Below, piece by piece: positions 2,621 to 36,584 of a stretch of DNA of 36,584 bases; the first letter of the stretch is position 1; every line of letters starts with the position of its first letter. The DNA comes from a virus. Taxonomy: Duplodnaviria > Heunggongvirae > Uroviricota > Caudoviricetes. Both the position numbers and the translations under genes were made by a program. The stretch is from IMG/VR virus record IMGVR_UViG_2718218304_000003; one strand, written 5' to 3'. Under the pieces are notes generated by a model. That model saw nothing but the letters and a program-made list of their open reading frames with translations, was not told the DNA's origin and searched no databases.

Positions 2621-2732
2621 AACTGAAGTTGCCCTGAAAATGAAATTTTTTTGCACAACCGCAGAACTTTTCCGCAGGGCATCAGTCTTAATTAGTGCCA
2701 CTGCTTTTCTTTGATGTCCCCATTTTGTGGAG

Positions 2733-2775
2733 CCCATCAACCCCGCCATTTCGGTTCAAGGTTGATGGGTTTTTT
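2733..2775 (+). terminator. intrinsic terminator in host/prophage junction
   Basis: Perfect 10-bp stem CCCATCAACC / GGTTGATGGG (2733-2742 / 2760-2769), 17-nt loop, T6 run at 2770-2775. Confidence 0.5.
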
Positions 2776-2855
2776 GTTGTCTGAAATTTATGCCGTTTAA
2801 AATCATGATGTTAGAAGCACTGTTTTTTAACGATGGCGACAAAATGGCGGCAGCG

Positions 2856-8829: not shown

Positions 8830-10002
8830 TTACGCGCTGACCTGGCTGGCAAAATTCACCAGGTACTGATCGGTGATGCGCTGGCGCAGCATCAGATTTT
8901 CAAGTGGCGGCACTGGCGTGTAGTCATAGTCGATGGTGAGTTTTCCGGCTTTCAGCGTGTCTTTGTCGTTCACCGACTCATCCAGCCAGCAATCACCACC
9001 AATGAGATAGCCCTGACTGACCAGGCTGCGCATTTTGGCGCGGATACCTTCGATAATGTCGCGGGCCAGCGACGGGTTAAGCGGTTTATCCACCGCCCAC
9101 ATGTGTGCTTCTGCCATCGTGTCCATCAGCACCTGCGCCGTGCGGGTGTAGTTTTCGAAGGCAAAGAGCGGGTCATCACTCAGGCAGCGGGAACCCCAGA
9201 AGCGGAAACCGTCTTTACGCACAAGTGTGGTGACGTCGTTCTGGTTCAGCAGACCTGCATCGGTTGCCGGGTCCTGCAGATCCCAGAACACATCTGCAGA
9301 AATTCCGGTGACACCGTTCACGCCCACGTTGGACAGGCTTTTGTGCCATCCGGTCTGCTCGTCAATTTTGGCGCGCAGACCAAGCGCACGGGCGGTGGCA
9401 TATGCCGTTGCTTCGGCATTCAGCACCGTGTCCCAGCCAGTAAAGTCAGGCCAGATCAGCATCCCTTCGCGCTGGCTGAAGTTTTCACGGTAAGTGATCG
9501 CCTCCTGTACCGTCTTGCAGCCATACGCTGACAGGTAAGCAAATCCACGCAGGCTTTGCGCCACGCTCAGCAACTCAGTAGCTACCGCCTTGGTGTCGTG
9601 GCCTGGCACGCCGAGAATGCGCGGTTTAACGCCGAGCTGAGCCTGTGCAGATAACAGGGCTTTCATACCTGTTTTTTTACCTTCAGCAGTCACTGCGCCG
9701 ATGATATTGGTCGTGGTTTCGTCTTCCGTTTCACCCTGCGGCACACGCACAACAACGGTCACGGGTTTTGCCTGGTCAGCGATGGCATCCAGCGAACGAG
9801 CCAGCGTGCCTGACTCACCCGCTTTACCGCTGGCAGTCAGCACATCAGTGATCAGCACGGGTTTATTAAGAGGAAACATTTTTGCATCGGCATCATCGCC
9901 CGTGCAGACCATACCCACGATGGCGGTGCTCACCGTGGTAATGGATCGGGTGCCTTCGTTGACTTCAACAACGCGCACCCCGTGGTGGTAATCCTGAGCC
10001 AT
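8830..10002 (-). CDS. FI: contractile tail sheath protein gpFI
   Basis: 390 aa, P2 FI-like sequence and position. Confidence 0.9.
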
Positions 10003-10144: not shown

Positions 10145-10711
10145 TCAGGGGGATTCATTGCTCTTATTTGCCGGAAATTTTCTATAAATTGTGGAAACAC
10201 CCACATCAAAAATCAGTGCAATACGCTGTCTTGATTCTCCGGCCTCGAGTAAACGTCCAATCTGTGCCCACTTTTCGGTGGTCAACTTAGGACGGCGTCC
10301 ACCTACTCTGCCTTTAGCACGAGCTGCAGCCAGCCCCGCCCTGGTACGTTCAACTATCAGTTCGCGTTCCATTTCAGCCAGGGCCCCCATGACATGAAAA
10401 AAGAAACGGCCCATTGGGGTGCTGGTATCAATACTGTCAGTCAGGCTTCGGAAATTCACGCCACGCTGGCGCAGCTCTTCTATCAGCGTAACGAGATGCC
10501 GCATACTGCGCCCCAACCTGTCCAGCTTCCAGACAACCAGAGTGTCACCTGCCGATAATGTCCTGAGCAGTTTTTTCAGTCCCGGTCTGTCGGACTTAGT
10601 GCCACTGATTTTGTCCTCAAAAATCCGCTCACATCCCGCGCAGTTCAGTGCATTACGTTGCAAATCGGTGTTCTGGTCATTTGTTGACACGCGTACATAG
10701 CCAATAAGCAT
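10145..10711 (-). CDS. site-specific DNA invertase, serine recombinase (Gin/Cin/Pin/Hin family)
   Basis: N-terminal catalytic motif GYVRVSTNDQ and near-collinear match to Gin/Pin (VVWKLDRLGRSM, SPMGRFFFHVMGALAEMERELI); start moved to MLIGYV. Confidence 0.9.
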   Translation of the reverse strand: MLIGYVRVSTNDQNTDLQRNALNCAGCERIFEDKISGTKSDRPGLKKLLRTLSAGDTLVVWKLDRLGRSMRHLVTLIEELRQRGVNFRSLTDSIDTSTPMGRFFFHVMGALAEMERELIVERTRAGLAAARAKGRVGGRRPKLTTEKWAQIGRLLEAGESRQRIALIFDVGVSTIYRKFPANKSNESP

Positions 10712-10766
10712 GATCAATCCCCTGAATAAAAACCGGGGATGATGCCAGTTAGCTGTTACCTCTGCA

Positions 10767-10792
10767 TTTTCTTAAACGTTGGTTTGGGAGAA
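10767..10792. other. invertase crossover site (left inverted repeat)
   Basis: TTTTCTTAAACG-TT-GGTTTGGGAGAA; its 12-bp right half is the exact reverse complement of the left half of the site at 12297-12322; 12-2-12 layout as in gix/cix/hix. Confidence 0.6.
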
Positions 10793-11146
10793 GCGGCAAA
10801 ACGAAATGTGGGTAACGAGCAAAACCAAATTCCGGATATGGCGGCGTTTGCCAGTTCACTTTCATCAACGGGTTTTCAAAAACTCCCTTCAGGTCTGATT
10901 ATTCAGTGGGGTATAGTCAGTGGAGCATCAAACTATACGGTGACTTACCCGGTAACATTCCCAAATCGTTCACTTGCGCTGTTGGCTGTACCACATACAA
11001 CGTCGGTGGCGGGTATATCTGCAATGGGCATAGCGAACTGTTCTGATATCAGCAAATCACAGTTCTATATAATTGTTGGCGGTATATCTCAGGGAGAAAT
11101 TGTCAAATATGAAAGATCCTGTTTTTGGGTAGCAATCGGTGTATAG
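10781..11146 (+). CDS. silent alternative tail-fibre C-terminal segment (Sv'-like), expressed only after inversion
   Basis: Open frame runs through the crossover site (..GLGE..) and ends ..IAIGV like the current H C-terminus; shares LIIQWG with it; no own start expected. Confidence 0.55.
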   Translation, partial: GLGEAAKRNVGNEQNQIPDMAAFASSLSSTGFQKLPSGLIIQWGIVSGASNYTVTYPVTFPNRSLALLAVPHTTSVAGISAMGIANCSDISKSQFYIIVGGISQGEIVKYERSCFWVAIGV

Positions 11147-11154
11147 GTATATCT

Positions 11155-11550
11155 ATGATTTATTTCTCAAAATCGACTAATGGTTTTTTCTTCGATGGTA
11201 TAAACAGTGACATGCCTGCTGACATTGTTGAGATATGTACAGACTTATACAATGAATTAATTGCCGGACAGCAGGAAGGGGGTAAATTAATTACGTCAGA
11301 TGAAAATGGTTTACCGGTACTAAAATCCCCGGCGATTGATTATGTCGCACGTGCGGAAAATCAGCGAATGCAGTTACTTGCTCATGCCGATAATGTCACA
11401 GCTGACTGGCGAGTGGAATTAATGCTTGGTGATATCAGCAGTACAGATAAAGAAAAACTATCCGCCTGGATGGACTACAAAAAAGAAGTAAAAGCCGTCG
11501 ACACTTCGACGGCTCCTGAGATTAGCTGGCCTGAGTTACCGGAGGTGTAG
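11155..11550 (+). CDS. tail fibre assembly protein (U'-like, for the alternative fibre)
   Basis: Follows the alternative fibre end; C-terminus (DTSTAPEISWPELPEV) parallels the oppositely oriented chaperone; start moved to internal Met. Confidence 0.7.
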   Translation: MIYFSKSTNGFFFDGINSDMPADIVEICTDLYNELIAGQQEGGKLITSDENGLPVLKSPAIDYVARAENQRMQLLAHADNVTADWRVELMLGDISSTDKEKLSAWMDYKKEVKAVDTSTAPEISWPELPEV

Positions 11551-11959
11551 GCCATTCAATATCTGGAGCACTGGAGGTATCCACCAGTTCCAGTGCGTCC
11601 AGGTAATCCAGCCACAAATTATATAGTGCCAGTTCCTCACCTTTCAGACGACCAATAGCTGCTTTGCCAGGCCATTGCTTACTGTTCATGTATTCGTTGG
11701 CCTGATTAAGCAATAATTGCCTTTCTGTTTCTGCCTGTTGAATAAGTTCTTCATGTGATGGTGGAGGTATTAGTGCCCATGTGGGTAATCCATTTTTTCC
11801 TGCAACACGAATTTTGTCATCTGGGGGCGTATTGATTGCAAATTCATTATAAACATCATCACTGACAGCCAGAGCATCATCTGGCCATGAATTTGCATTA
11901 ATGTAATCATCCTTAAGCGCAGGATTCACAAAAATGTTTAAAGATGGACTATAAAACAT
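11522..11959 (-). CDS. tail fibre assembly protein (G/U-like)
   Basis: 145 aa immediately downstream of H; C-terminus (DTSSAPDIEWPTPP) typical of this chaperone family. Confidence 0.75.
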   Translation of the reverse strand: MFYSPSLNIFVNPALKDDYINANSWPDDALAVSDDVYNEFAINTPPDDKIRVAGKNGLPTWALIPPPSHEELIQQAETERQLLLNQANEYMNSKQWPGKAAIGRLKGEELALYNLWLDYLDALELVDTSSAPDIEWPTPPVTQAS

Positions 11960-11960
11960 A

Positions 11961-13358
11961 TTACACCCCTATAGCGATATAACGACCTAATACAGCGTTT
12001 GCAGCAGTCGCTATGCTTGAAAAACCGCGGAACTGATTTGATGTAATTGCAGAAGCCGACAGGATTCCTGCGCCTGAAGGTGTATGCCCCACATGACTAA
12101 CTATCATTCCATAACATGCTGACGGAAAGGCAAAAGGAAAATCATTAAGATATCCGGCATCTTCACCACCAGACCCACCAAATCTCGCCTGCCCCCACTG
12201 AATAATCAGTGTTCTCCGGGAACCTGAAATAATTAACGGAATCGTTACATACCCATTCAGACCAATGACACCCGATGCAGTGCCAGCCAGAGATAATTCT
12301 CCCAAACCAAGGTATGCGAGAAGACCAGCTACATCCTTTCCACTCAAATTAGTCAGCGTATTGTCCAGCGGTTGTTTACCTGCTAGCGCATTAAGCATTG
12401 TCGTGGCAAAGTTCGGGTCATTCCCCAGCGCCGCCGCCAGTTCGTTCAATGTATCCAGTGCCGCAGGTGCAGAACCCACCATTCCTGCAATCGCCGATTT
12501 CACAAAAGCCGTAGTGGCAATCTGTGTATTGTTGACCGACTGTGCCGCAGTAGGTGCTGTTGGCGTTCCGGTAAGTGCCGGACTCGACAGCGGCGCTTTC
12601 AGTGCCAGCGCATTATTAATAGTGGTACTGAATTTCGGGTCATTGTTAATGGCTGCGGCAATTTCTTTCAGCGTGTCCAGCGTGGCTGGCGCACCATTAA
12701 TCAGGGTCGTCAGTGCCGCCTGAACAAACGCGGTCGTAGCAAGTTGCGTGGTATTATTCCCCACCGCTGGCGTTGGCGCTTTGGGGGTTCCGGTAAATGT
12801 CGGGCTGGCTTTTGACGCGTACTGTGAATGTGGGTCCTGTGCAGCAAGATGTTTTGCCATCAGGTCATCCACGTACACCTTCAGCTCCAGTACCTTGTCA
12901 TCCACATACTTGCGGGTTGCCAGCACTACGGCAGGGTCGATTTTCAGGGTGATATTGTCCGTGCTGCTGGTAATCAGCACCATGCGCACTGTCTGGGTAC
13001 GCCCGCTGCCTTCAGCCAGTTGCGGCTTATAGCTTTCCGGGCAGTTGCCCACGGCAATCAATGCCCCGGACTCATCAAACAGACCCACTTCACGTATCCA
13101 CCAACCGCCCTCGTTTTCAGGGATCACCTGTTCAGCAATAATCTGGCTGCTGTTCTGCGGGTCGATATAGAGCATATTCAGCGCAGCCCGGCGTTTCTCA
13201 TTTACTAATGCTGTCTGCTTTGCGCCCGGCGTTGGCAATGTTCCGCCGCCATCGCCGACCGCCATATGGGTAATTTTTAAAGGCACACCGAGCGCGGCGG
13301 CGCTGGCAAGTTTCGCCGCGCCAATATCCGTTAGCAGGGTATAAAATTTTGTGCTCAT
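11961..13358 (-). CDS. H: tail fibre protein gpH with invertible C-terminal domain
   Basis: 465 aa; N-terminus matches P2 H (GAAKLA, MAVGDGGG, ESYKP.LAEGSGR); internal imperfect protein repeats; crossover site lies in-frame at LLAYLGLGE. Confidence 0.85.
   Translation of the reverse strand: MSTKFYTLLTDIGAAKLASAAALGVPLKITHMAVGDGGGTLPTPGAKQTALVNEKRRAALNMLYIDPQNSSQIIAEQVIPENEGGWWIREVGLFDESGALIAVGNCPESYKPQLAEGSGRTQTVRMVLITSSTDNITLKIDPAVVLATRKYVDDKVLELKVYVDDLMAKHLAAQDPHSQYASKASPTFTGTPKAPTPAVGNNTTQLATTAFVQAALTTLINGAPATLDTLKEIAAAINNDPKFSTTINNALALKAPLSSPALTGTPTAPTAAQSVNNTQIATTAFVKSAIAGMVGSAPAALDTLNELAAALGNDPNFATTMLNALAGKQPLDNTLTNLSGKDVAGLLAYLGLGELSLAGTASGVIGLNGYVTIPLIISGSRRTLIIQWGQARFGGSGGEDAGYLNDFPFAFPSACYGMIVSHVGHTPSGAGILSASAITSNQFRGFSSIATAANAVLGRYIAIGV
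12297..12322. other. invertase crossover site (right inverted repeat, inside H)
   Basis: TTCTCCCAAACC-AA-GGTATGCGAGAA; partner of 10767-10792. Confidence 0.6.
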
Positions 13359-13960
13359 GGATTCACTCTCATTGTGTCAATAACATGGACCGCCCCGCCT
13401 TCATGCGCGGTGCCACCGGAAATAATTGTTTCGTTGATATACGGATAGATCGTGATTTCTTCGCCAAGATAGCTGGCGGCTCCCACCCAATGCGGGCCGC
13501 TGGTCTGCAGATTGATGGACATGCCGATCATGTGACGGCTACATGGTTTGGCATCGCTTATCAGTCGCTCAAGTTCCAGATAGGTATCTTCAGTGATGCC
13601 CTGATCCTGCACGCCGATATCCAGGCGAAACGTGCCTGGTGTTTCTCCGGTCTGCCACCACTCAATAATGCGGATCAGAAAGCCGAACGGCTCCACCACC
13701 CGCCGCACGGCACTGGTGGTTCCTTTATGCTGATGAATATAAAAAGCATCCTTCACCACCTGGCGTTTGACACTTTCTGTCCAGTCCTCGTCCCAGCGAT
13801 CCACAGAGAACGCCCAGGCGAGATAAGGCAGGAAACTGACCGGACAGGTCGTTGGATTCCACAAGTCACGCAGCGGCACCTGCAAATCAGAAATTCCGCT
13901 GCAGGTTTGCGCCAGTCGGCGCTCCAGTGAAGTTGAACCCGGTGGCAGCAGACTATTCAT
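13355..13960 (-). CDS. I: baseplate assembly protein gpI
   Basis: 201 aa; position between J and H as in P2. Confidence 0.85.
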   Translation of the reverse strand: MNSLLPPGSTSLERRLAQTCSGISDLQVPLRDLWNPTTCPVSFLPYLAWAFSVDRWDEDWTESVKRQVVKDAFYIHQHKGTTSAVRRVVEPFGFLIRIIEWWQTGETPGTFRLDIGVQDQGITEDTYLELERLISDAKPCSRHMIGMSINLQTSGPHWVGAASYLGEEITIYPYINETIISGGTAHEGGAVHVIDTMRVNP

Positions 13961-21800: not shown

Positions 21801-23567
21801 ATGAACACCACACTGACACCCGCAGATCTCGATCCCCGTCGGCAGGCCATGCTGCTGTACTTTCAGGGATACCGCGTAGCCCGCATTGCTGAAATGCTGG
21901 GCGAGAAAGTTGCAACCGTTCACAGCTGGAAAAAACGCGACAAGTGGGGTGACTATGGGCCGCTGGATCAGATGCAGCTCACCACCGCCGCACGCTATTG
22001 CCAGCTCATTATGAAGGAGCACAAAGAAGGGAAAGATTTCAAAGAAATTGACCTGCTGGCACGCCAGTCGGAGCGCCACGCGCGGATCGGCAAGTTTAAC
22101 AATGGCGGCAACGAAGCCGACTTAAACCCTAACGTCGCCAACCGCAACAAAGGGCCGCGCCGTCAGCCGGAAAAGAATGTTTTCACCGATGAACAGATTG
22201 AGAAGCTGGAAGAAATCTTCCATTCCTCCATGTTCAACTACCAGCGCCACTGGTGGGAAGCTGGAAAAACCAACCGCATCCGTAATCTGCTGAAGTCACG
22301 CCAGATCGGCGCGACCTTTTACTTTGCCCGTGAAGCCCTGATTGACGCCCTGCTTACCGGACGTAACCAGATTTTCCTTTCTGCCAGTAAGGCACAGGCT
22401 CACGTCTTTAAGCAATACATCATCGACTTCGCCAAAGAAGTCGAGGTGGAGCTGAAAGGCGATCCGATGGTGCTTCCTAACGGGGCCACGCTTTACTTCC
22501 TCGGCACCAATGCCCGCACTGCCCAGAGTTATCACGGCAACCTGTATCTGGATGAATATTTCTGGATACCGAAATTCCAGGAGCTGCGCAAAGTGGCTTC
22601 CGGTATGGCTATTCACAAAAAATGGCGACAAACCTATTTTTCCACGCCATCCAGCCTGACACACAGTGCTTATCCGTTCTGGTCTGGTGCGCTGTTCAAC
22701 CGTGGGCGCAACAAAGCCGATAAGGTGGACATCGACCTGTCCCACAGCAATCTGGCCCCCGGCCTGCTGTGCGCAGACGGGCAATACCGCCAGATAGTCA
22801 CCGTGGAAGATGCAGTGCGCGGCGGATGTAACCTTTTCGACCTCGATCAGTTGCGCATGGAGTACAGCCCGGACGAATACCAGAACCTGCTGATGTGCGA
22901 GTTTGTGGACGATCTCGCGTCCGTGTTCCCGCTCAGCGAGCTGCAGGCGTGCATGGTGGACAGTTGGGAAGTCTGGAGCGACTTTCATGCACTGGCCCTG
23001 CGCCCGTTTGGCTGGCGCGAAGTGTGGATCGGTTATGACCCGGCAAAAGGTACGCAAAACGGCGACAGCGCCGGGTGCGTGGTGGTGGCACCGCCAGCCG
23101 TGCCGGGCGGTAAGTTCCGCATTCTTGAGCGTCACCAGTGGCGCGGGATGGACTTCCGCGCCCAGGCTGACGCCATCAAAAAACTGACTGAACAGTACAA
23201 CGTGACATACATCGGTATCGACTCAACCGGCGTCGGTCACGGGGTTTACGAGAACGTGAAAGCGTTTTTTCCTGCCGTCCGGGAGTTTGTCTACAACCCC
23301 AACGTTAAAAACGCCCTGGTACTCAAGGCCTACGACATTATTAGCCACCGCCGCCTGGAGTTTGACGCTGGGCACACCGACATAGCGCAGTCCTTTATGG
23401 CAATCCGTCGCGCCACCACTGCCAGCGGCAACCGCCCGACCTATGAAGCCAGCCGCAGCGAAGAAGCCAGCCACGCCGATCTGGCCTGGGCAACAATGCA
23501 CGCACTGTTTAATGAACCGCTGCAGGGCGAGTCCGCCAATACCAGCAATATTGTGGAGATTTTTTGA
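21801..23567 (+). CDS. P: terminase ATPase (large) subunit gpP
   Basis: 588 aa; near-collinear with P2 P (PADL.PRR, LLY.QGYRVA.IAE.LGEK, TVHSWK.RD, KSRQIGAT.YFA.EAL). Confidence 0.9.
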   Translation: MNTTLTPADLDPRRQAMLLYFQGYRVARIAEMLGEKVATVHSWKKRDKWGDYGPLDQMQLTTAARYCQLIMKEHKEGKDFKEIDLLARQSERHARIGKFNNGGNEADLNPNVANRNKGPRRQPEKNVFTDEQIEKLEEIFHSSMFNYQRHWWEAGKTNRIRNLLKSRQIGATFYFAREALIDALLTGRNQIFLSASKAQAHVFKQYIIDFAKEVEVELKGDPMVLPNGATLYFLGTNARTAQSYHGNLYLDEYFWIPKFQELRKVASGMAIHKKWRQTYFSTPSSLTHSAYPFWSGALFNRGRNKADKVDIDLSHSNLAPGLLCADGQYRQIVTVEDAVRGGCNLFDLDQLRMEYSPDEYQNLLMCEFVDDLASVFPLSELQACMVDSWEVWSDFHALALRPFGWREVWIGYDPAKGTQNGDSAGCVVVAPPAVPGGKFRILERHQWRGMDFRAQADAIKKLTEQYNVTYIGIDSTGVGHGVYENVKAFFPAVREFVYNPNVKNALVLKAYDIISHRRLEFDAGHTDIAQSFMAIRRATTASGNRPTYEASRSEEASHADLAWATMHALFNEPLQGESANTSNIVEIF

Positions 23568-24592
23568 TGGGAAAGAGTAAGAAAAACCGCGCTGCGGCGA
23601 CGAATCAGCTCAAGCATAAAAGCCAAACTTCAGCCGAAGCATTCAGCTTTGGCGATCCCGTTCCTGTTCTGGACCGCCGTGAACTGCTGGACTATGTGGA
23701 ATGCGTACAGATGGATCGCTGGTATGAGCCGCCCGTCAGCTTTGACGGACTGGCACGAACCTTCCGCGCCGCCGTGCATCACAGCTCACCAATTGCGGTG
23801 AAATGCAACATTCTGACCAGTACCTACATCCCTCACCCGCTGCTCAGCCAGCAGGCTTTTTCACGTTTTGTGCAGGACTATCTGGTATTTGGTAACGCCT
23901 ACCTGGAGAAACGCACGAACCGCTTCGGTGAAGTTATCGCCCTTGAGCCTGCTCTGGCAAAATACACCCGACGCGGGTTAGACCTGGATACCTACTGGTT
24001 TGTGCAATACGGTATGACAACCCAGCCGTATCAGTTCACGAAAGGCAGCATTTTTCATCTGATGGAACCTGACATCAACCAGGAGATCTACGGCCTACCA
24101 GGTTATCTTTCTGCCATTCCGTCAGCCCTGCTCAACGAGTCCGCCACGCTGTTCCGCCGGAAGTATTACATTAACGGCAGCCATGCAGGCTTCATCATGT
24201 ACATGACCGATGCCGCGCAGAACCAGGAGGATGTGAACAACCTCCGCAATGCGATGAAAAGCGCCAAAGGCCCTGGCAACTTCCGCAACCTGTTTATGTA
24301 CTCGCCTAACGGCAAAAAGGACGGGCTTCAGATCATCCCGTTGTCAGAAGTCGCGGCGAAGGATGAATTTCTGAACATCAAGAACGTCAGCCGTGATGAC
24401 ATGATGGCGGCACACCGCGTACCGCCTCAGATGATGGGAATTTTGCCGAATAATGTTGGGGGTTTTGGTGATGTGGAGAAGGCGAGCTGCGTCTTCGTAA
24501 GAAATGAACTATTACCACTTCAAAAAAGATTCATGGAAATAAATAGATGGCTTGGTCATGAAATTATAAATTTTGAAATATATACATTATAA
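23564..24592 (+). CDS. Q: portal protein gpQ
   Basis: 342 aa (P2 Q is 344); coupled to P (ATGA overlap); last ~35 codons AT-rich. Confidence 0.9.
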   Translation: MMGKSKKNRAAATNQLKHKSQTSAEAFSFGDPVPVLDRRELLDYVECVQMDRWYEPPVSFDGLARTFRAAVHHSSPIAVKCNILTSTYIPHPLLSQQAFSRFVQDYLVFGNAYLEKRTNRFGEVIALEPALAKYTRRGLDLDTYWFVQYGMTTQPYQFTKGSIFHLMEPDINQEIYGLPGYLSAIPSALLNESATLFRRKYYINGSHAGFIMYMTDAAQNQEDVNNLRNAMKSAKGPGNFRNLFMYSPNGKKDGLQIIPLSEVAAKDEFLNIKNVSRDDMMAAHRVPPQMMGILPNNVGGFGDVEKASCVFVRNELLPLQKRFMEINRWLGHEIINFEIYTL

Positions 24593-24635: not shown

Positions 24636-25691
24636 TTAAAAATTATTTTCTTCAATAGAGAACTCAATCCCTCGGGATAACTTATCAATATTCACATCAA
24701 ATGCGATATCTGTTAATTCACCATCCTCGATTTCATACATAACTTCAATTTCAATATCGAAACTAATCTCTTGAACTTCAGTTCGTGTGGTTGTCTCCAT
24801 TGGAATCATTACTTTATCTTCGCTATCCCAATACCCATTATTAAAGTCTGGACCAGAAACAGTAACTTCAAAATCTACAGAAACAGAGAAGGTCGCTAGA
24901 CAATAATTATTGTCAATCTTAATTATTGATGGTTCAAAGTCATCAATATTGACGACTTCAAATGAATCCAATTCAGCGTCTTCCCAAGTTGAAACGTTAT
25001 ATCCATCGGCATCATTGAGTTGGGCAATTACGTCCGCTCTTATGTCTTCACGTTTGCTTTCGATAAACTGCATCAATTTATTACTTAATTCGTTTGTATG
25101 CGTATTGTATTCACCTAGAAACTTATCAAGTGAATCAATTTGATGAAGATTGTTTTTACCATCACAATAATTTTTTAAGTCACTATCCTCAGAAATGATA
25201 TACACATCTTCATCATTAACAAATCGCTCTACCGCAGCTAAAGTGATTGCATCAGGAAACTCACTTTTTTTCTTATTTTGCCCAAATGGTGGTTCTTTGC
25301 CAAAGTATTTATCTAAAACCTCATTAAGATCTATCACTTCTATTGTAGCTAATTTGGCGTGACATCCTTTCAAAAAATCATCAAAAACTTTTTGTGCTGC
25401 TTCGTGAATTTCATGTTCGTTAAATTGCTGAAAAAAACCATGGAGCGGTCCATTATCAATACTATTCAAAAGCCTAGCTTTTCTTTGTACTGTGTTTATA
25501 GCCTGCAGAGCATCCTTTATTGATTCCTCTATTTTACCTTTTACTTCTCTCTCTACAACTGTAGTTGTAATTAAGACTAAATCACCTTTCGCACATAATT
25601 CATGGAAAGCTTTAAATGCTACCCCCTCAAAATGAAGACCAGCCTTTACGTACGTTTGTGTGTCAATAAATACCTTATTTGTTTTAAGCAT
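24636..25691 (-). CDS. PIN-like domain protein with acidic C-terminal domain; candidate accessory/defence gene
   Basis: 351 aa; SD AGGA before ATG; N-terminus has PIN-style motifs (VFIDT ... VVERE ... IISEDSDL); C-terminal ~150 aa very acidic; AT-rich gene. Confidence 0.7.
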   Translation of the reverse strand: MLKTNKVFIDTQTYVKAGLHFEGVAFKAFHELCAKGDLVLITTTVVEREVKGKIEESIKDALQAINTVQRKARLLNSIDNGPLHGFFQQFNEHEIHEAAQKVFDDFLKGCHAKLATIEVIDLNEVLDKYFGKEPPFGQNKKKSEFPDAITLAAVERFVNDEDVYIISEDSDLKNYCDGKNNLHQIDSLDKFLGEYNTHTNELSNKLMQFIESKREDIRADVIAQLNDADGYNVSTWEDAELDSFEVVNIDDFEPSIIKIDNNYCLATFSVSVDFEVTVSGPDFNNGYWDSEDKVMIPMETTTRTEVQEISFDIEIEVMYEIEDGELTDIAFDVNIDKLSRGIEFSIEENNF

Positions 25692-25810
25692 ACTAATCCT
25701 AATAAGTTTTAAGATCCGCTACAATTGTTTATGTTTATTTTTTATCAATAATCATACGTAGTTAAGATTATCCATGTCGAAAAATTAAATCAACTTCAAT
25801 TTATCCTTAA

Positions 25811-25845
25811 GCGCGCGCTCGTATCCCCGCCACGCCTGCCCGCTT
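25811..25845. other. possible cos (cohesive end) region
   Basis: GC-rich block whose reverse complement reads GGCGTGGCGGGGA, resembling the P2/186 cohesive-end sequence as I recall it; expected between old/tin-equivalent genes and Q. Confidence 0.3.
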
Positions 25846-25881
25846 TATGTAGTGGTTTTCATGCAGGTGCATGACATAAGC

Positions 25882-25905
25882 AAAAGCCCGCCAGTTCTGG
25901 CGGGC
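25882..25905 (-). terminator. putative terminator after the two-gene accessory operon
   Basis: Stem GCCCGCC / GGCGGGC (25886-25892 / 25899-25905) followed on the minus strand by UUUU (25882-25885). Confidence 0.4.
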
Positions 25906-26050
25906 CTCAGCAAAAACGATCCTAAAACGATCATGCGGATTCATGCAGCATAGACATGCAAAGCTTGTTAGAACGGTGATTCCCATGTTAAAGGAGGCTT
26001 ACTCTTGTTGAGGTTAAACATCCACAGTAACTCCTGCCAATACGAACACT

Positions 26051-26587
26051 TTATTCATCATAGTGTTCTAATTTCGCTTTTGCTAAACGTCCATGTAAGT
26101 GATTAACAAAATGTAAATTATTCAAAATCAGGCTCATAACGCATTTTAATTGCATCCAGCTAATAAAGTAAATGAAGAAAATACCAATGTATTTAAACAA
26201 GTCTTTATTAGCTTGATAAACAGGTAATGCATAAAACACTGCCTTAACCAAAAAGAAAATTAGAATCCCAGCCATAACACAAGCAGATGTGATTATTGTA
26301 TAAACTAATTTCTCTATTCTTGGTGAGTCATGCTCATTTTTTATATAACTTACATCATCCTTAACAATACTATTCATTGCATTCGGATATAAAAAACCGA
26401 CCCATAAACCGACAATAGTGAATATAGATGCTGAAATATTTATAAGCGCACCTAAAATATCTTTTGCATCATTATAGGAAAAACTTTTGAACGAAAAATA
26501 GCTTATAACGCAGCACAAAACAACAGCAACAAAATTAATCGCCTGCTGTTTTGCAACTGTTATTATCAAACCTTCCGTTTCTGTCAT
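26051..26587 (-). CDS. 4-TM membrane protein, second gene of candidate accessory/defence operon
   Basis: 178 aa with four hydrophobic helices; ATG 1 nt after the stop of the upstream gene; SD GGAAGG inside upstream gene. Confidence 0.75.
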   Translation of the reverse strand: MTETEGLIITVAKQQAINFVAVVLCCVISYFSFKSFSYNDAKDILGALINISASIFTIVGLWVGFLYPNAMNSIVKDDVSYIKNEHDSPRIEKLVYTIITSACVMAGILIFFLVKAVFYALPVYQANKDLFKYIGIFFIYFISWMQLKCVMSLILNNLHFVNHLHGRLAKAKLEHYDE

Positions 26588-26588
26588 A

Positions 26589-27788
26589 TCAACCTTCCGC
26601 TATCTTTTTTGTGGATGCAGCTTCAGATTCTTTAATGGATGCTTCCTCAGCATATTTTACTTCACTAATCAAATCATCACGAATTTTGTTTATTTCATCC
26701 AGTAAAAAACGCGCTGAATAATGCTCAACCCCATCCGAATCTTGAAGAGGAAGTTTAGTCCTGGCTACATAGCTACTGAGCCAAACCGGATTAGCACGAT
26801 CAGCCAGTAAAAAACCCACATCCCATTCAGACTCTTCACCTCTCATTGAGAAGAGATTTCGAAGCTCATCCGATGATGGTGCACCGTCAATTTTAACTTC
26901 AATTTTACGAGGCTGCTCCAAAACAGGAGGTGCCCCAATAAGCTTATTACGCTTTTCTTCACCCACCAGAGATGCTAAAGCTACACTTGTTAGCTTCAAC
27001 AATGGTTGCCTTGTGTCATTTTGGTTTATTACCGTTGTATCCTTTATCAATGTGTGTGTAATTTTATGCCTTAACCTTTCAAAGTTTTCCTCAGCGGCTT
27101 TAAGTTTTGTTTCTTCCAATACAAACTTGAAGATACAGTTTATCTCATTTTTGCCATCTTTATATTGAAACTTAGTATTGTAGACATCCACACAACGACC
27201 AGGGGTCTTAGCTGATTCAAATGTACGCTTAGATTTCGTTCTTTTACCTAACTTACTATTATTATTTACATGCTGAATGAAGTATTGTGCGAAGAGATAA
27301 GTATCAGCGAAAGAATGGGGGAATCTGATTGATGCTATTTTATTCAACTCAGGAATAATCCAGTAATAGCAGGGTTCACCCCAAATTATTTTATCCTCAC
27401 CATGTTCTCTTCCCGCCCTAATGGTTCCTTTACTATCACCACTTACTTTAGAACCGACCTTAATACCATGTATTCCGTTACCGTTCCCCACTTCACGGTA
27501 TAAAACAATTACTGCATCTTTAGTCTGGCTGTCCCTCACAAGGCCTCGACTGTAAACTCGTGTTCGCAGAGGTTGTTCTTCTTTATTCCATGGGAGAGTC
27601 TGCTCAAAATTTTTATCCTTGAGCCACCCTTCTAAATCGTCCAAAACCCCCATAAGATCGCCGAATTTATAATCAAGCTCTTCGGGTTTATTCTTTAAAC
27701 GATAAAACCCACAAGCAGTAATATCAAAGAAGGTGATTGAGCCGTTGTCCACTAAAACTCCTTTTTGCCAAAGCAACACACGATACAT
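26589..27788 (-). CDS. unknown soluble protein, first gene of candidate accessory/defence operon
   Basis: 399-aa ORF, AT-rich, no family I can name; R-x4-H motif (RHKITH); translationally coupled to the membrane gene. Confidence 0.7.
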   Translation of the reverse strand: MYRVLLWQKGVLVDNGSITFFDITACGFYRLKNKPEELDYKFGDLMGVLDDLEGWLKDKNFEQTLPWNKEEQPLRTRVYSRGLVRDSQTKDAVIVLYREVGNGNGIHGIKVGSKVSGDSKGTIRAGREHGEDKIIWGEPCYYWIIPELNKIASIRFPHSFADTYLFAQYFIQHVNNNSKLGKRTKSKRTFESAKTPGRCVDVYNTKFQYKDGKNEINCIFKFVLEETKLKAAEENFERLRHKITHTLIKDTTVINQNDTRQPLLKLTSVALASLVGEEKRNKLIGAPPVLEQPRKIEVKIDGAPSSDELRNLFSMRGEESEWDVGFLLADRANPVWLSSYVARTKLPLQDSDGVEHYSARFLLDEINKIRDDLISEVKYAEEASIKESEAASTKKIAEG

Positions 27789-27955
27789 TTTTCACGTATA
27801 CCATCAGAATCGTCCCTAAACTTCAAGTTACTTATGATAATCAAGAAAGCTGTCGAATGTTGTTGCATAGGCCAAAGTTTCAGGGGAACAAGGCATTCTT
27901 AAATCACTTTTCACTACCCGTTTCTAACGCCTCACGCGGCTCGTTGTTCAACCTT

Positions 27956-27986
27956 GCGGACGATAAAAACCAGTTTTATCGTCCGC
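27956..27986 (-). terminator. strong hairpin after the DinI-like gene
   Basis: 13-bp perfect stem GCGGACGATAAAA / TTTTATCGTCCGC with 5-nt loop, 9 nt downstream of the DinI-like stop. Confidence 0.4.
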
Positions 27987-27994
27987 AACGTTCG

Positions 27995-28228
27995 CTAGTG
28001 TAACCAGCTGTCGTCCTCCCAGACCTTCTGCATAATTTTCATCACTTGTTTTCTTTCTTCGTCCAGTTGCAGTCCGGTCAGTTCCACACCGTTAGAGCTA
28101 CCTTTGCGGATACGAATTACCGTTTTGGGATACAGGGGGCGCAGATTGCGGTAAAGCTCGGATTCAAGGGCGTCCAGTGTAGACTGGCTAATCTTCTGCT
28201 CTTTATCGATCATTATTTCAATGCGCAT
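27995..28228 (-). CDS. DinI-like protein (SOS-inducible; Tum-type antirepressor candidate)
   Basis: DinI-family similarity (MRIEI.IDK, LY.KTVIRIRKGSSNGVELTGL, ER, KIMQKVWEDD.W); start moved to MRIEI, preceded by SD GAGGTGA. Confidence 0.75.
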   Translation of the reverse strand: MRIEIMIDKEQKISQSTLDALESELYRNLRPLYPKTVIRIRKGSSNGVELTGLQLDEERKQVMKIMQKVWEDDSWLH

Positions 28229-28238
28229 AAAAGTCACC

Positions 28239-28427
28239 TCAGCTGATGACATCCATTGAGCGGTTGTATTCATGGGTTCTGATTTTTGCCATGAGTTCAT
28301 CTGTCAGTTCAGAAACCCACTGCAGGGCCAGCCCCTTCTCTTCATCACTACACTCACTAGCCGCTACAAGCTTAAGAAAAAAATCAATGCGCTGGAGCTT
28401 CAAAGACTCCAAAAAATAGTCCTGCAT
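28239..28427 (-). CDS. small protein, first gene of LexA-controlled operon
   Basis: 62-aa ORF with strong SD (GGAGGA) directly downstream of the LexA box; stop 10 nt before the DinI-like start. Confidence 0.5.
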   Translation of the reverse strand: MQDYFLESLKLQRIDFFLKLVAASECSDEEKGLALQWVSELTDELMAKIRTHEYNRSMDVIS

Positions 28428-33679: not shown

Positions 33680-34189
33680 TCACAGCAAACCGAATGAAGC
33701 ACCGAGGCCAGTCACGGTATCAACTGCACTCGCCATCGCAGGATTAGCCTGTAAACGGGCCTGCAATGAAACAGCAGCCAGCGCCATCAGTCGTGTAACA
33801 GAGTTAATGCTGCTGATCGCATCACGACGGCCTGCACTGGTTTTTACATCGCCAGAAACCGCACCTGCCGCGACACGCCCTATCTCTGCAGTTGCACTCA
33901 TGACGTAATGCGGCAGTTTCTCTTTTGCCACCTCATTAATCGGTACACATGGCAGGCAGTGAATCTGTGCCAGAAAGCCATCTACCAGCGTTGAATCTTC
34001 AGTCAGATCGGTAAGCAACCAGATTTCTGGTGCGGTTAATAAATGAGGTTGAGCTGGGTTCAGCTTGTTCCGCAGAATCTGCACATTCATGCCTGCACGT
34101 TCTGCCAGTTGCACTAGGTTGTGGCGCAATGCGAATGCACGACAGGCTTCATCAAAATGTGGATGTTTGGAAACTTGGTAATCAAACAT
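33680..34189 (-). CDS. cII: CII-like transcriptional activator (phage 186 type)
   Basis: 169 aa from [11 protein letters not shown], matching my recollection of 186 CII length and N-terminus; follows apl. Confidence 0.65.
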
Positions 34190-34221
34190 GGTCAATGCCT
34201 CTGATGTATTTCAGAATCGAA

Positions 34222-34443: not shown

Positions 34444-34568
34444 GATGCAACATTCCTCGTTTAATGATGATTAATCAGGACGAATACGGATCGTTTGTAT
34501 TTTGTGAACACCATAAACATACGATCGCACAGTGAAATCGTCAAGATAAAAGTTCACTTGGAGTGACC
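34444..34568. promoter_or_regulatory. lysis-lysogeny switch region
   Basis: 125-bp divergent intergenic region between apl and cI with repeated GTGAA/TTCAC motifs; operators not resolved. Confidence 0.4.
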
Positions 34569-35138
34569 ATGAATTTGGAGAAAGGCGGACGAGGCGCTAT
34601 AGAGCGCATGGTAGAAGCTTATGGATTCAAAACTCGACAGGCGTTGTGCGATCATTTAGGAATCTCTAAAAGTACACTCGCCACACGCTACATGCGTGAC
34701 TCATTCCCAGCAGAATGGGTAATCCAGTGCGCCCTTGAAACGGGCACCTCGCTTAATTGGCTCACAACCGGACATGGTTCAAAGCAAACTTCAGGTAATA
34801 CAAATACTATGGAAGTTGCTAAATATGTATTATCTGATGGTGCCTTGCGTGAAGACGGTTTTTATATTTTTGATAAGGGATTTCTACCCTCTACGTTTAA
34901 AAAACCTTTTGTCATCACAGATAACAATTCTGAATTTATTTGTGATAAAGAATTTGATGATATACGTGACGGTAAATGGGTAATAAGTATTGATGGCGAA
35001 ATAACAATCCGCGACATTACTCGTTTACCCGGTGGAAGAATCTTCGTTGAAGGTGGAAACAGAGCCTTCGAGTGCAAGATAGAAGATGTTGAAATAATTG
35101 GGAAAATTATAAGTTTAACAATTAAGTACGTTAGGTAA
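34569..35138 (+). CDS. cI: CI-like immunity repressor (phage 186 type)
   Basis: 189 aa from ATG preceded by SD GGAG (ORF track starts at GTG 34563); N-terminal HTH-like domain; length close to 186 CI; AT-rich C-terminal half. Confidence 0.7.
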   Translation: MNLEKGGRGAIERMVEAYGFKTRQALCDHLGISKSTLATRYMRDSFPAEWVIQCALETGTSLNWLTTGHGSKQTSGNTNTMEVAKYVLSDGALREDGFYIFDKGFLPSTFKKPFVITDNNSEFICDKEFDDIRDGKWVISIDGEITIRDITRLPGGRIFVEGGNRAFECKIEDVEIIGKIISLTIKYVR

Positions 35139-35453: not shown

Positions 35454-36584
35454 ATGTATGGTCGCAGGATTTCATACATTGACACTGGTTATATATACAG
35501 TAAAAATGTTCTCTATTGGAGGGCATTTTTTATGGCAGTACGAAAACTCACCACAGGAAAATGGCTTTGCGAATGTTACCCCGCCGGACGTAGTGGGCGT
35601 CGTGTGCGTAAACAATTCGCCACCAAAGGCGAAGCTCTGGCTTTTGAGCGCCATACGATGGAAGAAACCGAAGCAAAGCCCTGGCTGGGAGAATCAGTGG
35701 ATCGTCGAACACTGAAAGACGTGGTTGAGCTATGGTTCAAACTACATGGTAAATCTCTAACCGCTGGGCAGCATGTCTATGATAAATTGCTGTTGATGGT
35801 TGACGCTCTGGGCAATCCCCTTGCAACCGATCTCACCTCTAAAATGTTTGCCCACTATCGAGATAAACGCCTGACAGGTGAGATCTACTTCAGCGAGAAA
35901 TGGAAGAAAGGAGCAAGCCCGGTCACCATTAACCTGGAGCAAAGCTATCTAAGTAGTGTTTTTAGCGAACTATCCCGCCTGGGCGAATGGTCGTATCCAA
36001 ACCCACTGGAGAACATGCGAAAATTCACCATCGCAGAAAAAGAGATGGCATGGCTTACCCATGAGCAGATTGTTGAACTGCTGGCTGATTGCAAACGTCA
36101 GGACCCAATTCTGGCACTGGTAGTCAAGATATGCTTAAGCACAGGCGCACGCTGGCGAGAAGCAATAAACCTTACCCGATCACAGGTGACTAAATACCGA
36201 ATTACCTTTGTAAGAACGAAGGGGAAGAAAAACAGAAGCATCCCTATCAGTAAAGAGCTTTATGAAGAGATCATGGCGCTTGATGGGTTCAATTTCTTCA
36301 CAGACTGCTATTTTCAATTTTTATCCGTGATGGAAAAAACGTCAATCGTGCTCCCTCGCGGTCAACTGACACACGTTCTGCGCCATACGTTTGCGGCGCA
36401 TTTCATGATGTCGGGTGGAAATATCCTTGCTTTGCAAAAAATCCTCGGACATCACGATATAAAAATGACTATGCGTTACGCTCATCTGGCACCGGATCAT
36501 CTGGAAACGGCGCTCCGTTTCAATCCTCTGGCAACGCTGCCAAGTGGCGACAAAGTGGCGGCAGCGGTTGGCATTACCCCGTAA
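35454..36584 (+). CDS. int: tyrosine integrase (P2/186 family)
   Basis: C-terminal catalytic region with R...HxxR...Y (VLRHTFAAHF, MRYAHL); true start probably the internal MAVRKL near 35532; stop is the last codon of the window. Confidence 0.9.
   Translation: MYGRRISYIDTGYIYSKNVLYWRAFFMAVRKLTTGKWLCECYPAGRSGRRVRKQFATKGEALAFERHTMEETEAKPWLGESVDRRTLKDVVELWFKLHGKSLTAGQHVYDKLLLMVDALGNPLATDLTSKMFAHYRDKRLTGEIYFSEKWKKGASPVTINLEQSYLSSVFSELSRLGEWSYPNPLENMRKFTIAEKEMAWLTHEQIVELLADCKRQDPILALVVKICLSTGARWREAINLTRSQVTKYRITFVRTKGKKNRSIPISKELYEEIMALDGFNFFTDCYFQFLSVMEKTSIVLPRGQLTHVLRHTFAAHFMMSGGNILALQKILGHHDIKMTMRYAHLAPDHLETALRFNPLATLPSGDKVAAAVGITP

Follow-up and report, generated by a model that had tools for sequence, protein, structure and literature searches.

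Evidence for a Pin/Gin-type site-specific inversion switch of the tail-fibre tip in a 186/P2-like prophage of Escherichia coli

The tail-fibre gene H of IMG/VR virus record IMGVR_UViG_2718218304_000003 (36,584 nucleotides, referred to below as the window) ends inside a segment that is bounded by inverted sites and lies next to a gene for a serine DNA invertase. This raises the question of whether the phage makes one type of fibre or two. The window looks like an apparently complete 186/P2-like (Peduoviridae) prophage of E. coli, and the layout of its genes was taken from an open reading frame (ORF) map together with a Pfam domain search of the encoded proteins. A sequence-only reading of the same DNA had proposed that a Gin/Pin-type invertase here inverts the adjacent segment and so changes the receptor-binding tip. 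From the comparisons described below, the locus very probably works as a site-specific inversion switch of the Pin/Gin type that acts on the tail-fibre tip.

The top inverted pair returned by a repeat finder consists of 26-nt arms at 10767-10792 and 12297-12322 that are 81% complementary and lie 1504 nt apart, so that the two sites are separated by 1530 bp from centre to centre, in agreement with the segment of ~1.53 kb described from the sequence alone. The exact complementarity claimed for their inner halves is also borne out. These 12-nt halves, GGTTTGGGAGAA and TTCTCCCAAACC, are exact reverse complements, and no further exact copy of them is found in the window. When a 26-nt pix-like pattern was searched with up to three mismatches, exactly these two sites were returned from the window and none from 100 shuffles. 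The e14 element of K-12 has the sites TTCTCCCAAACC-AA-CGTTTATGAAAA and TTCTCCCAAACC-AA-GGTTTTCGAGAG, while both copies of the Mu site read TTCCTGTAAACC-GA-GGTTTTGGATAA. An alignment to known crossover sites had been suggested as a check, and in it both sites align with Mu gix and are near-identical to e14 pix, to which, as to gix, they are homologous. The distal site is identical in the phage Cartapus, in MS20657 and in E. coli D9. Serine invertases require identical core dinucleotides in inverted orientation for inversion; the two sites are inverted relative to each other and share the core dinucleotide AA. A third crossover site, as in the shufflon-like multi-inversion systems of p15B or of one enteropathogenic E. 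coli (EPEC) prophage, was considered and rejected, as scans of the whole window (half-site with up to two mismatches; 26-nt pattern with up to three) gave only the two sites.

The distal site lies within gene H (11961-13358, 465 aa), the product of which consists of an N-terminal collar domain (Phage_tail_fib) and a C-terminal Gp53-like_C domain. The constant 5' part of the gene is reached by the late operon from upstream, and over 252 aa its product shares 53% identity with P2 H. The segment itself contains the 3' end of H in current use (Hv1), two opposed Caudo_TAP chaperone genes (Tfa1 and Tfa2) and a silent Gp53-like_C end of H (Hv2) opposite to H, the same contents that the sequence-only reading had listed. 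Hv2 occupies 10739-11146 in the ORF map and, in the present orientation, is promoterless and without an N-terminal part of its own. The frame of Tfa2 extends in the map from 11125 or 11155 to 11550; a 396-nt gene is annotated in homologues, and the ATG at 11155 (131 aa) is most likely its start. Tfa1 and Tfa2 are convergent with an overlap of 29 bp (11522-11550), and their products are 27% identical to each other.

When strand exchange was simulated at the two central dinucleotides (10779/80 and 12309/10), the product was an open, in-frame fibre protein of 471 aa (H') without frameshift or stop, which has a common prefix of 354 residues with the 465-aa H. The earlier statement that the silent end is in frame across the crossover thus stands, whereas its statement that both versions end in the same residues IAIGV needs correction: the C-termini of the tips are YIAIGV and WVAIGV, and only AIGV is common to both. 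Beyond the short motifs LIIQWG and AIGV no significant BLAST similarity was found between Hv1 and Hv2. This dissimilarity, combined with the low identity of Tfa1 to Tfa2, fits different specificities of the two tips, which presumably recognise different receptors. As each alternative tip is provided with its own Caudo_TAP chaperone, inversion would exchange tip and chaperone together, as had been supposed.

The evidence that the segment inverts comes from genome comparison, using 5426 complete E. coli genomes and the contigs that encode an identical invertase. With a 601-bp query, the native junction of the constant part of H with Hv1 (Hc-Hv1) was fully covered in 19 of the complete genomes, six of them at 100% identity, and the Hc-Hv2 junction obtained by flipping the segment in silico was fully covered in 12. 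Strains D9 and D4 match the native junction at 100% identity. CFSAN064036 contains the full flipped module as one collinear piece of 2501 bp (97.3% identity), its genes arranged just as predicted, and the predicted 471-aa fusion protein is found without a single residue changed in public assemblies of E. coli. Closer relatives are found among the contigs with the identical invertase. Over 8567 bp, contig L012 (E. coli D9) matches the native window at 100% identity. Contig L014 (GCA_019756315.1) is collinear over the same length with the in-silico flipped window, with 3 mismatches; aligned against the native window it falls into three pieces, of which the central 1535 bp are inverted. Contig L016 is likewise flipped, and L014 and L016 carry 2-3 mismatches over the DNA that they share with the window. 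Two further contigs, both from short reads, L017 (metagenome scaffold ERZ28658630) and L018 (genome contig of GCA_033741955.1), end at the window equivalents of 10793 and 10777, that is at the invertase-proximal site. The end of a contig at an invertible repeat is the usual sign of a branch in the assembly, and these ends suggest that the sequenced DNA held the segment in both orientations and that the assembly broke there for this reason. With both orientations, rather than one only, on record in near-identical prophages, the segment does appear to invert.

Inverted stretches can also be exchanged by RecA-dependent homologous recombination, and both orientations might have arisen in this way, either between the 26-bp sites or between the arms of a perfect 17-nt inverted repeat (10895-10911 and 12193-12209) that lies inside the segment and encodes the LIIQWG common to both tips. 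In the flipped relatives, however, the switch point is at the 26-bp sites, with the change of partner at the inner edge of the site, and not at the 17-nt repeat, which argues for site-specific over homologous recombination. In addition, a dedicated invertase with matching sites adjoins the segment, and repeats of 12-17 bp are too short for RecA, being far below the length of an efficient substrate. An origin of the two orientations in homologous recombination is therefore extremely unlikely, and site-specific inversion is the explanation followed here.

The enzyme adjoining the segment has the properties expected of such a recombinase. Its gene lies 68 bp from the first 26-bp site. The ORF in the map extends over 10145-10717; following the annotation of homologues, the start is most likely the ATG at 10711, giving a protein of 188 aa, and not the TTG at 10717. 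A Resolvase domain (residues 5-137, E=2e-53) is followed by an HTH_7 domain (residues 140-183). The structures of Mu Gin (3UJ3 and 4M6F) align with residues 1-184 (E=1e-92), whereas resolvases match far more weakly (gamma-delta resolvase, E=2e-34). Its identity is 86% with K-12 PinE, 84% with PinE of an e14-like element and 75% with Mu Gin. The catalytic serine (S9) is present. Residues unique to the Fis/enhancer-dependent invertases have been described as K47, R/K48 and R/K51 of helix B and Q151, R154 and L155 of the Fis contact in Hin (McLean et al., PMC3798978). All have counterparts here, in helix B (K46/K47/R50) and in the Fis contact (Q150/R153/L154), at the Hin numbering minus 1. Judged by its sequence, the enzyme is an intact, full-length invertase of the Pin/Gin family, as the sequence-only reading had it, and not the product of a pseudogene. 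NCBIfam assigned neither the invertase nor the fibre nor the chaperones to a specific family: every match of the recombinase fell below cut-off, and the three remaining proteins gave no match.

Invertases of this kind act together with an enhancer, and a candidate Fis-dependent recombinational enhancer is found at the 5' end of the invertase gene. It is formed by two G-N13-C cores, GTGTCAACAAATGAC and GCGCGGGATGTGAGC, at gene positions 22-36 and 71-85, around a stretch with ATTTG and TAATG. Position and register of the cores agree with those in Mu gin and K-12 pinE, and the distance from the crossover to the centre of the proximal core is 96.5 bp. This spacing and the positions of the cores fit the description of hin, the 65-bp enhancer of which lies about 100 bp from hixL (PMC3798978). 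A scan with the strict Fis consensus GNNYRNNWNNYRNNC was set aside because its matches were inconsistent among gin, pinE and the present gene, and positional homology and the G-N13-C cores were therefore used instead. By this analogy the candidate enhancer is consistent with a Fis-dependent switch, rather than proof of one.

Some observations weigh against a functional switch. The six complete genomes that are 100% identical over the 601-bp junction query are all in the native orientation; assemblies show the majority form only. The proximal site is 1 nt away from both the proximal site of K-12 e14 and the Cartapus site (A for T, in the outer half). The candidate Fis sites are defined by a loose G-N13-C pattern and positional homology only, the motif being degenerate. 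Finally, a simple scan for a sigma-70 promoter of the invertase gave no clear candidate (6 matches vs 5.1 in shuffles). The uniform orientation of the six genomes, the changed base in the proximal site and the lack of a convincing promoter in the scan could also be read as marks of a frozen or decaying switch, inherited from an active ancestor, in which the inversion rate is no longer meaningful, perhaps through the changed base or through weak expression of the invertase, and the silent cassette is a relic. Against this reading, the invertase is full length and retains all catalytic and Fis-contact residues, the silent frames of Hv2 and Tfa2 are intact and share 99% identity with copies that are expressed elsewhere, and the exact fusion protein is found in databases. 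Moreover, L014 and L016, which encode an identical invertase and show only 2-3 mismatches over the shared DNA, are flipped. A frozen switch is thus improbable, and a functional one remains the preferred reading.

Following the Hin/Gin paradigm, a functional switch would operate by binding of invertase dimers to the two 26-bp sites, which, together with host Fis bound to the candidate enhancer at the start of the invertase gene, would assemble into an invertasome. Double-strand cleavage at the central AA, a 180-degree rotation of subunits and religation would then invert the 1530 bp. With the segment as it lies here, the late operon would express the constant part joined to Hv1 (465 aa), then Tfa1, and after inversion the constant part joined to Hv2 (471 aa), then Tfa2. 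The particles released from a lysogen population would each carry one of two receptor-binding tips, which would amount to bet-hedging of host range. We infer both the dependence on Fis and the rate of switching by analogy with the known systems. A strong terminator-like hairpin with a T-run, located by a consensus scan just past the stop codon of Tfa1, may mark where the late V-W-J-I-H-tfa operon ends while the segment is oriented as here; for the opposite orientation the scan gave no counterpart. The hairpin (11517-11490) falls within the last coding stretch of the silent Tfa2 gene.

Switches of this type are already known, being annotated in close relatives, and inversion has been shown experimentally in P2-like prophages. 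Using whole-genome sequencing and PCR, Goldberg et al. 2014 (PMC4272514) showed that variants of the fibre segment coexist within clonal cultures, through switching in e14 and in two P2-like EPEC prophages. In the P2-like prophages of EPEC E2348/69 an invertase and inverted repeats likewise alternate the C-terminus of the fibre (PMC4272514), a likeness of architecture; one of those prophages has three repeats and four variants, in contrast to the two sites found here.

The closest system is the P segment of e14 with its invertase PinE. Besides the 84-86% identity of the invertases, the two systems share the inner half-site TTCTCCCAAACC and the core AA, with the proximal sites 1 nt apart, and the same arrangement, in which the invertase gene lies outside the segment and is followed by the silent tip, its chaperone, the opposed chaperone and the expressed tip. 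The relationship extends to the cassettes themselves in the e14-like element of strain UPEC-245U/190328 (L005, NZ_CP049845.1, 4879367-4881808), which encodes the four cassette proteins at 96.5-100% identity. Hv1 is 100% identical to the silent cassette of that element and Hv2 99% identical to its expressed tip. There the cassettes lie next to pinE, behind a constant fibre part that is different and short. The same four cassettes behind a different constant part show that the whole switch has been exchanged between unrelated phage backbones. The e14 of K-12 carries other cassettes (TfaE of 200 aa, and TfaP). Moreover, e14 is a defective element with a short constant part of the stfP/ycfK type, whereas the present apparently complete prophage has an H of the 186/P2 type with a constant part of 354 aa.

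Exchange is also apparent within this group of prophages. In a further set of contigs an identical invertase protein is found with a completely different cassette pair, again in both orientations (L009, L011 and L013 vs L010 and L015). Of this other pair, one cassette gives an H of 466 aa and a chaperone of 146 aa, the other a Collar-domain H of 528 aa and a TfaE-like chaperone of 200 aa. In L009 and L010, the two that were aligned, the flanks are about 99.9% identical. With a different pair between an identical invertase and near-identical flanks, the segment is therefore also a hotspot of cassette replacement. The G+C content of the invertible segment (10793-12296) is 43.4%, compared with 54.3% for the constant part of H (12323-13358) and 50.9% for the whole window, and the difference between segment and constant part is in keeping with horizontal exchange of the cassette.

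Matches to parts of the module occur in 3208 of the 5426 complete E. coli genomes, so many strains hold several such modules. This abundance bears on which enzyme does the work. Gin, Cin, Pin and Hin complement one another, and with sites that are nearly identical to e14 pix the segment might be flipped mainly in trans, by e14 Pin or by the invertase of another resident prophage, leaving its own enzyme redundant or acting elsewhere. Yet the cis-encoded enzyme is intact and occupies the canonical position beside the site, with a candidate enhancer within its own gene, and action in trans would supplement action in cis, not substitute for it. That flipping comes mainly from elsewhere is for these reasons hardly credible, and the adjoining invertase is taken as the enzyme of the switch. 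A broader idea is that the modules of one cell form a cross-talking network, in which any Pin-family invertase flips every prophage fibre and the sites exchange cassettes among unrelated phages. It draws on the cassette shared at 96.5-100%, the sites that are nearly e14 pix and the near-identical prophages with alternative cassette pairs, and would have to be regarded as rather unlikely.

Among P2-like phages the arrangement recurs. Cartapus (Peduoviridae, Elveevirus) has the order I, H, tfa, opposed tfa, silent tip, invertase, FI and shows 96% DNA identity over 83% of the region; in its record the enzyme is labelled 'DNA-invertase, Mu phage Gin invertase homolog'. One cassette differs, with a 473-aa H and a 139-aa chaperone in place of Hv1/Tfa1. 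An invertase between the tail-fibre genes and FI is likewise present in pro483, 500465-1, Klebsiella phage KP12 and Felsduovirus, and the same architecture occurs in dozens more records of P2-like phages of Escherichia, Klebsiella and Salmonella. The Mu G/Gin and P1 C/Cin systems share the presumed mechanism and follow the same plan, with the constant Sc outside, Sv/U and Sv'/U' opposed inside and the invertase gene just outside. The Mu G segment differs in its size of ~3 kb, in its much longer variable parts and in its core, GA and not AA, and its tips and chaperones show only a distant relationship to those here (for Mu U', 41% identity over 65 aa).

P2 itself shares the late tail operons (V W J I H G, the slot, then FI FII E T U D) and a homologous N-terminal part of H. 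Its order is, however, H, G, terminator, fun(Z), pF, FI, with a single H/G pair and a non-essential fun(Z), and without an invertase or silent cassette. The order in the window is H, Tfa1, Tfa2, Hv2, invertase, FI (ORF map). The earlier statement that P2 lacks the module is therefore correct, and so, in the sense of positional equivalence only, is its placement in the Z/fun slot. The coordinates of the module and of the genes on either side of it are collected in Table 1.

Table 1. Positions of the module components and adjoining genes within the window
Feature	Position	Strand	Remarks
Sheath gene FI	8830-10002	-	ORF map and Pfam
Serine DNA invertase, Pin/Gin family, 188 aa	10145-10711	-	Outside the invertible segment; Resolvase and HTH_7 domains
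Candidate Fis-dependent recombinational enhancer	10627-10690	-	5' end of invertase gene, gene positions 22-85
Invertase-proximal crossover site, pix-like	10767-10792	-	TTCTCCCAAACC-AA-CGTTTAAGAAAA
Hv2, silent alternative 3' end of H, ~121 codons	10781-11146	+	Gp53-like_C PF21882, E=2e-15
Tfa2, 131 aa, chaperone for Hv2, silent here	11155-11550	+	Caudo_TAP, E=1e-23
Terminator-like hairpin and T-run	11490-11517	-	Just past Tfa1 stop; 12-bp stem, 6 GC pairs; consensus scan
Tfa1, 145 aa, chaperone for Hv1	11522-11959	-	Caudo_TAP, E=3e-33
Hv1, presently expressed variable 3' part of H, 111 codons	11961-12296	-	Gp53-like_C
Distal crossover site, within gene H	12297-12322	+	TTCTCCCAAACC-AA-GGTATGCGAGAA
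Constant 5' part of tail-fibre gene H	12311-13358	-	Outside the segment, has start codon; Phage_tail_fib PF12571, E=1e-64
Baseplate gene I	13355-13960	-	ORF map and Pfam

The importance of the locus beyond its correct annotation is small. PGAP-style records list the silent tip as if it were a separate gene product, under 'gp53-like domain-containing protein' or 'hypothetical protein', and give the enzyme the generic label 'recombinase family protein'. Recognition of the switch means that such a prophage can make two types of fibre, and that the annotated H is one of two isoforms. Short-read assemblies may break or be mis-oriented at this point. For the prediction or engineering of host range, the module offers two natural pairs of tip and chaperone for one constant shaft.

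Several features of the remainder of the window were also noted. On one side of the prophage lie the host small RNA gene RybB (window 2700-2778, Rfam 105 bits) and a permease gene with Asp-Al_Ex and TrkA_C domains (935-2620), and the phage integrase lies at the opposite end of the window (35454-36584). A search for tRNA genes across the window found none. The regulatory genes (27995-28300, 33680-34195 and 34563-35138) are of the 186 type rather than the P2 type and comprise a CI repressor (Phage_CI_repr and Phage_CI_C), a CII (CP76) protein and a DinI-like protein, which could be a Tum-like SOS antirepressor. The equivalent of the tin/old accessory hotspot of P2 spans 24636-28300, from the portal gene Q (23564-24592) to the DinI-like gene and replication gene A. 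This slot contains a gene for a PIN_12-domain protein on the minus strand (24636-25691) and a two-gene candidate anti-phage system, with PADLOC matches to PDC-M18A (26589-27788, E=4.5e-31) and PDC-M18B (26051-26587, E=2.7e-18).

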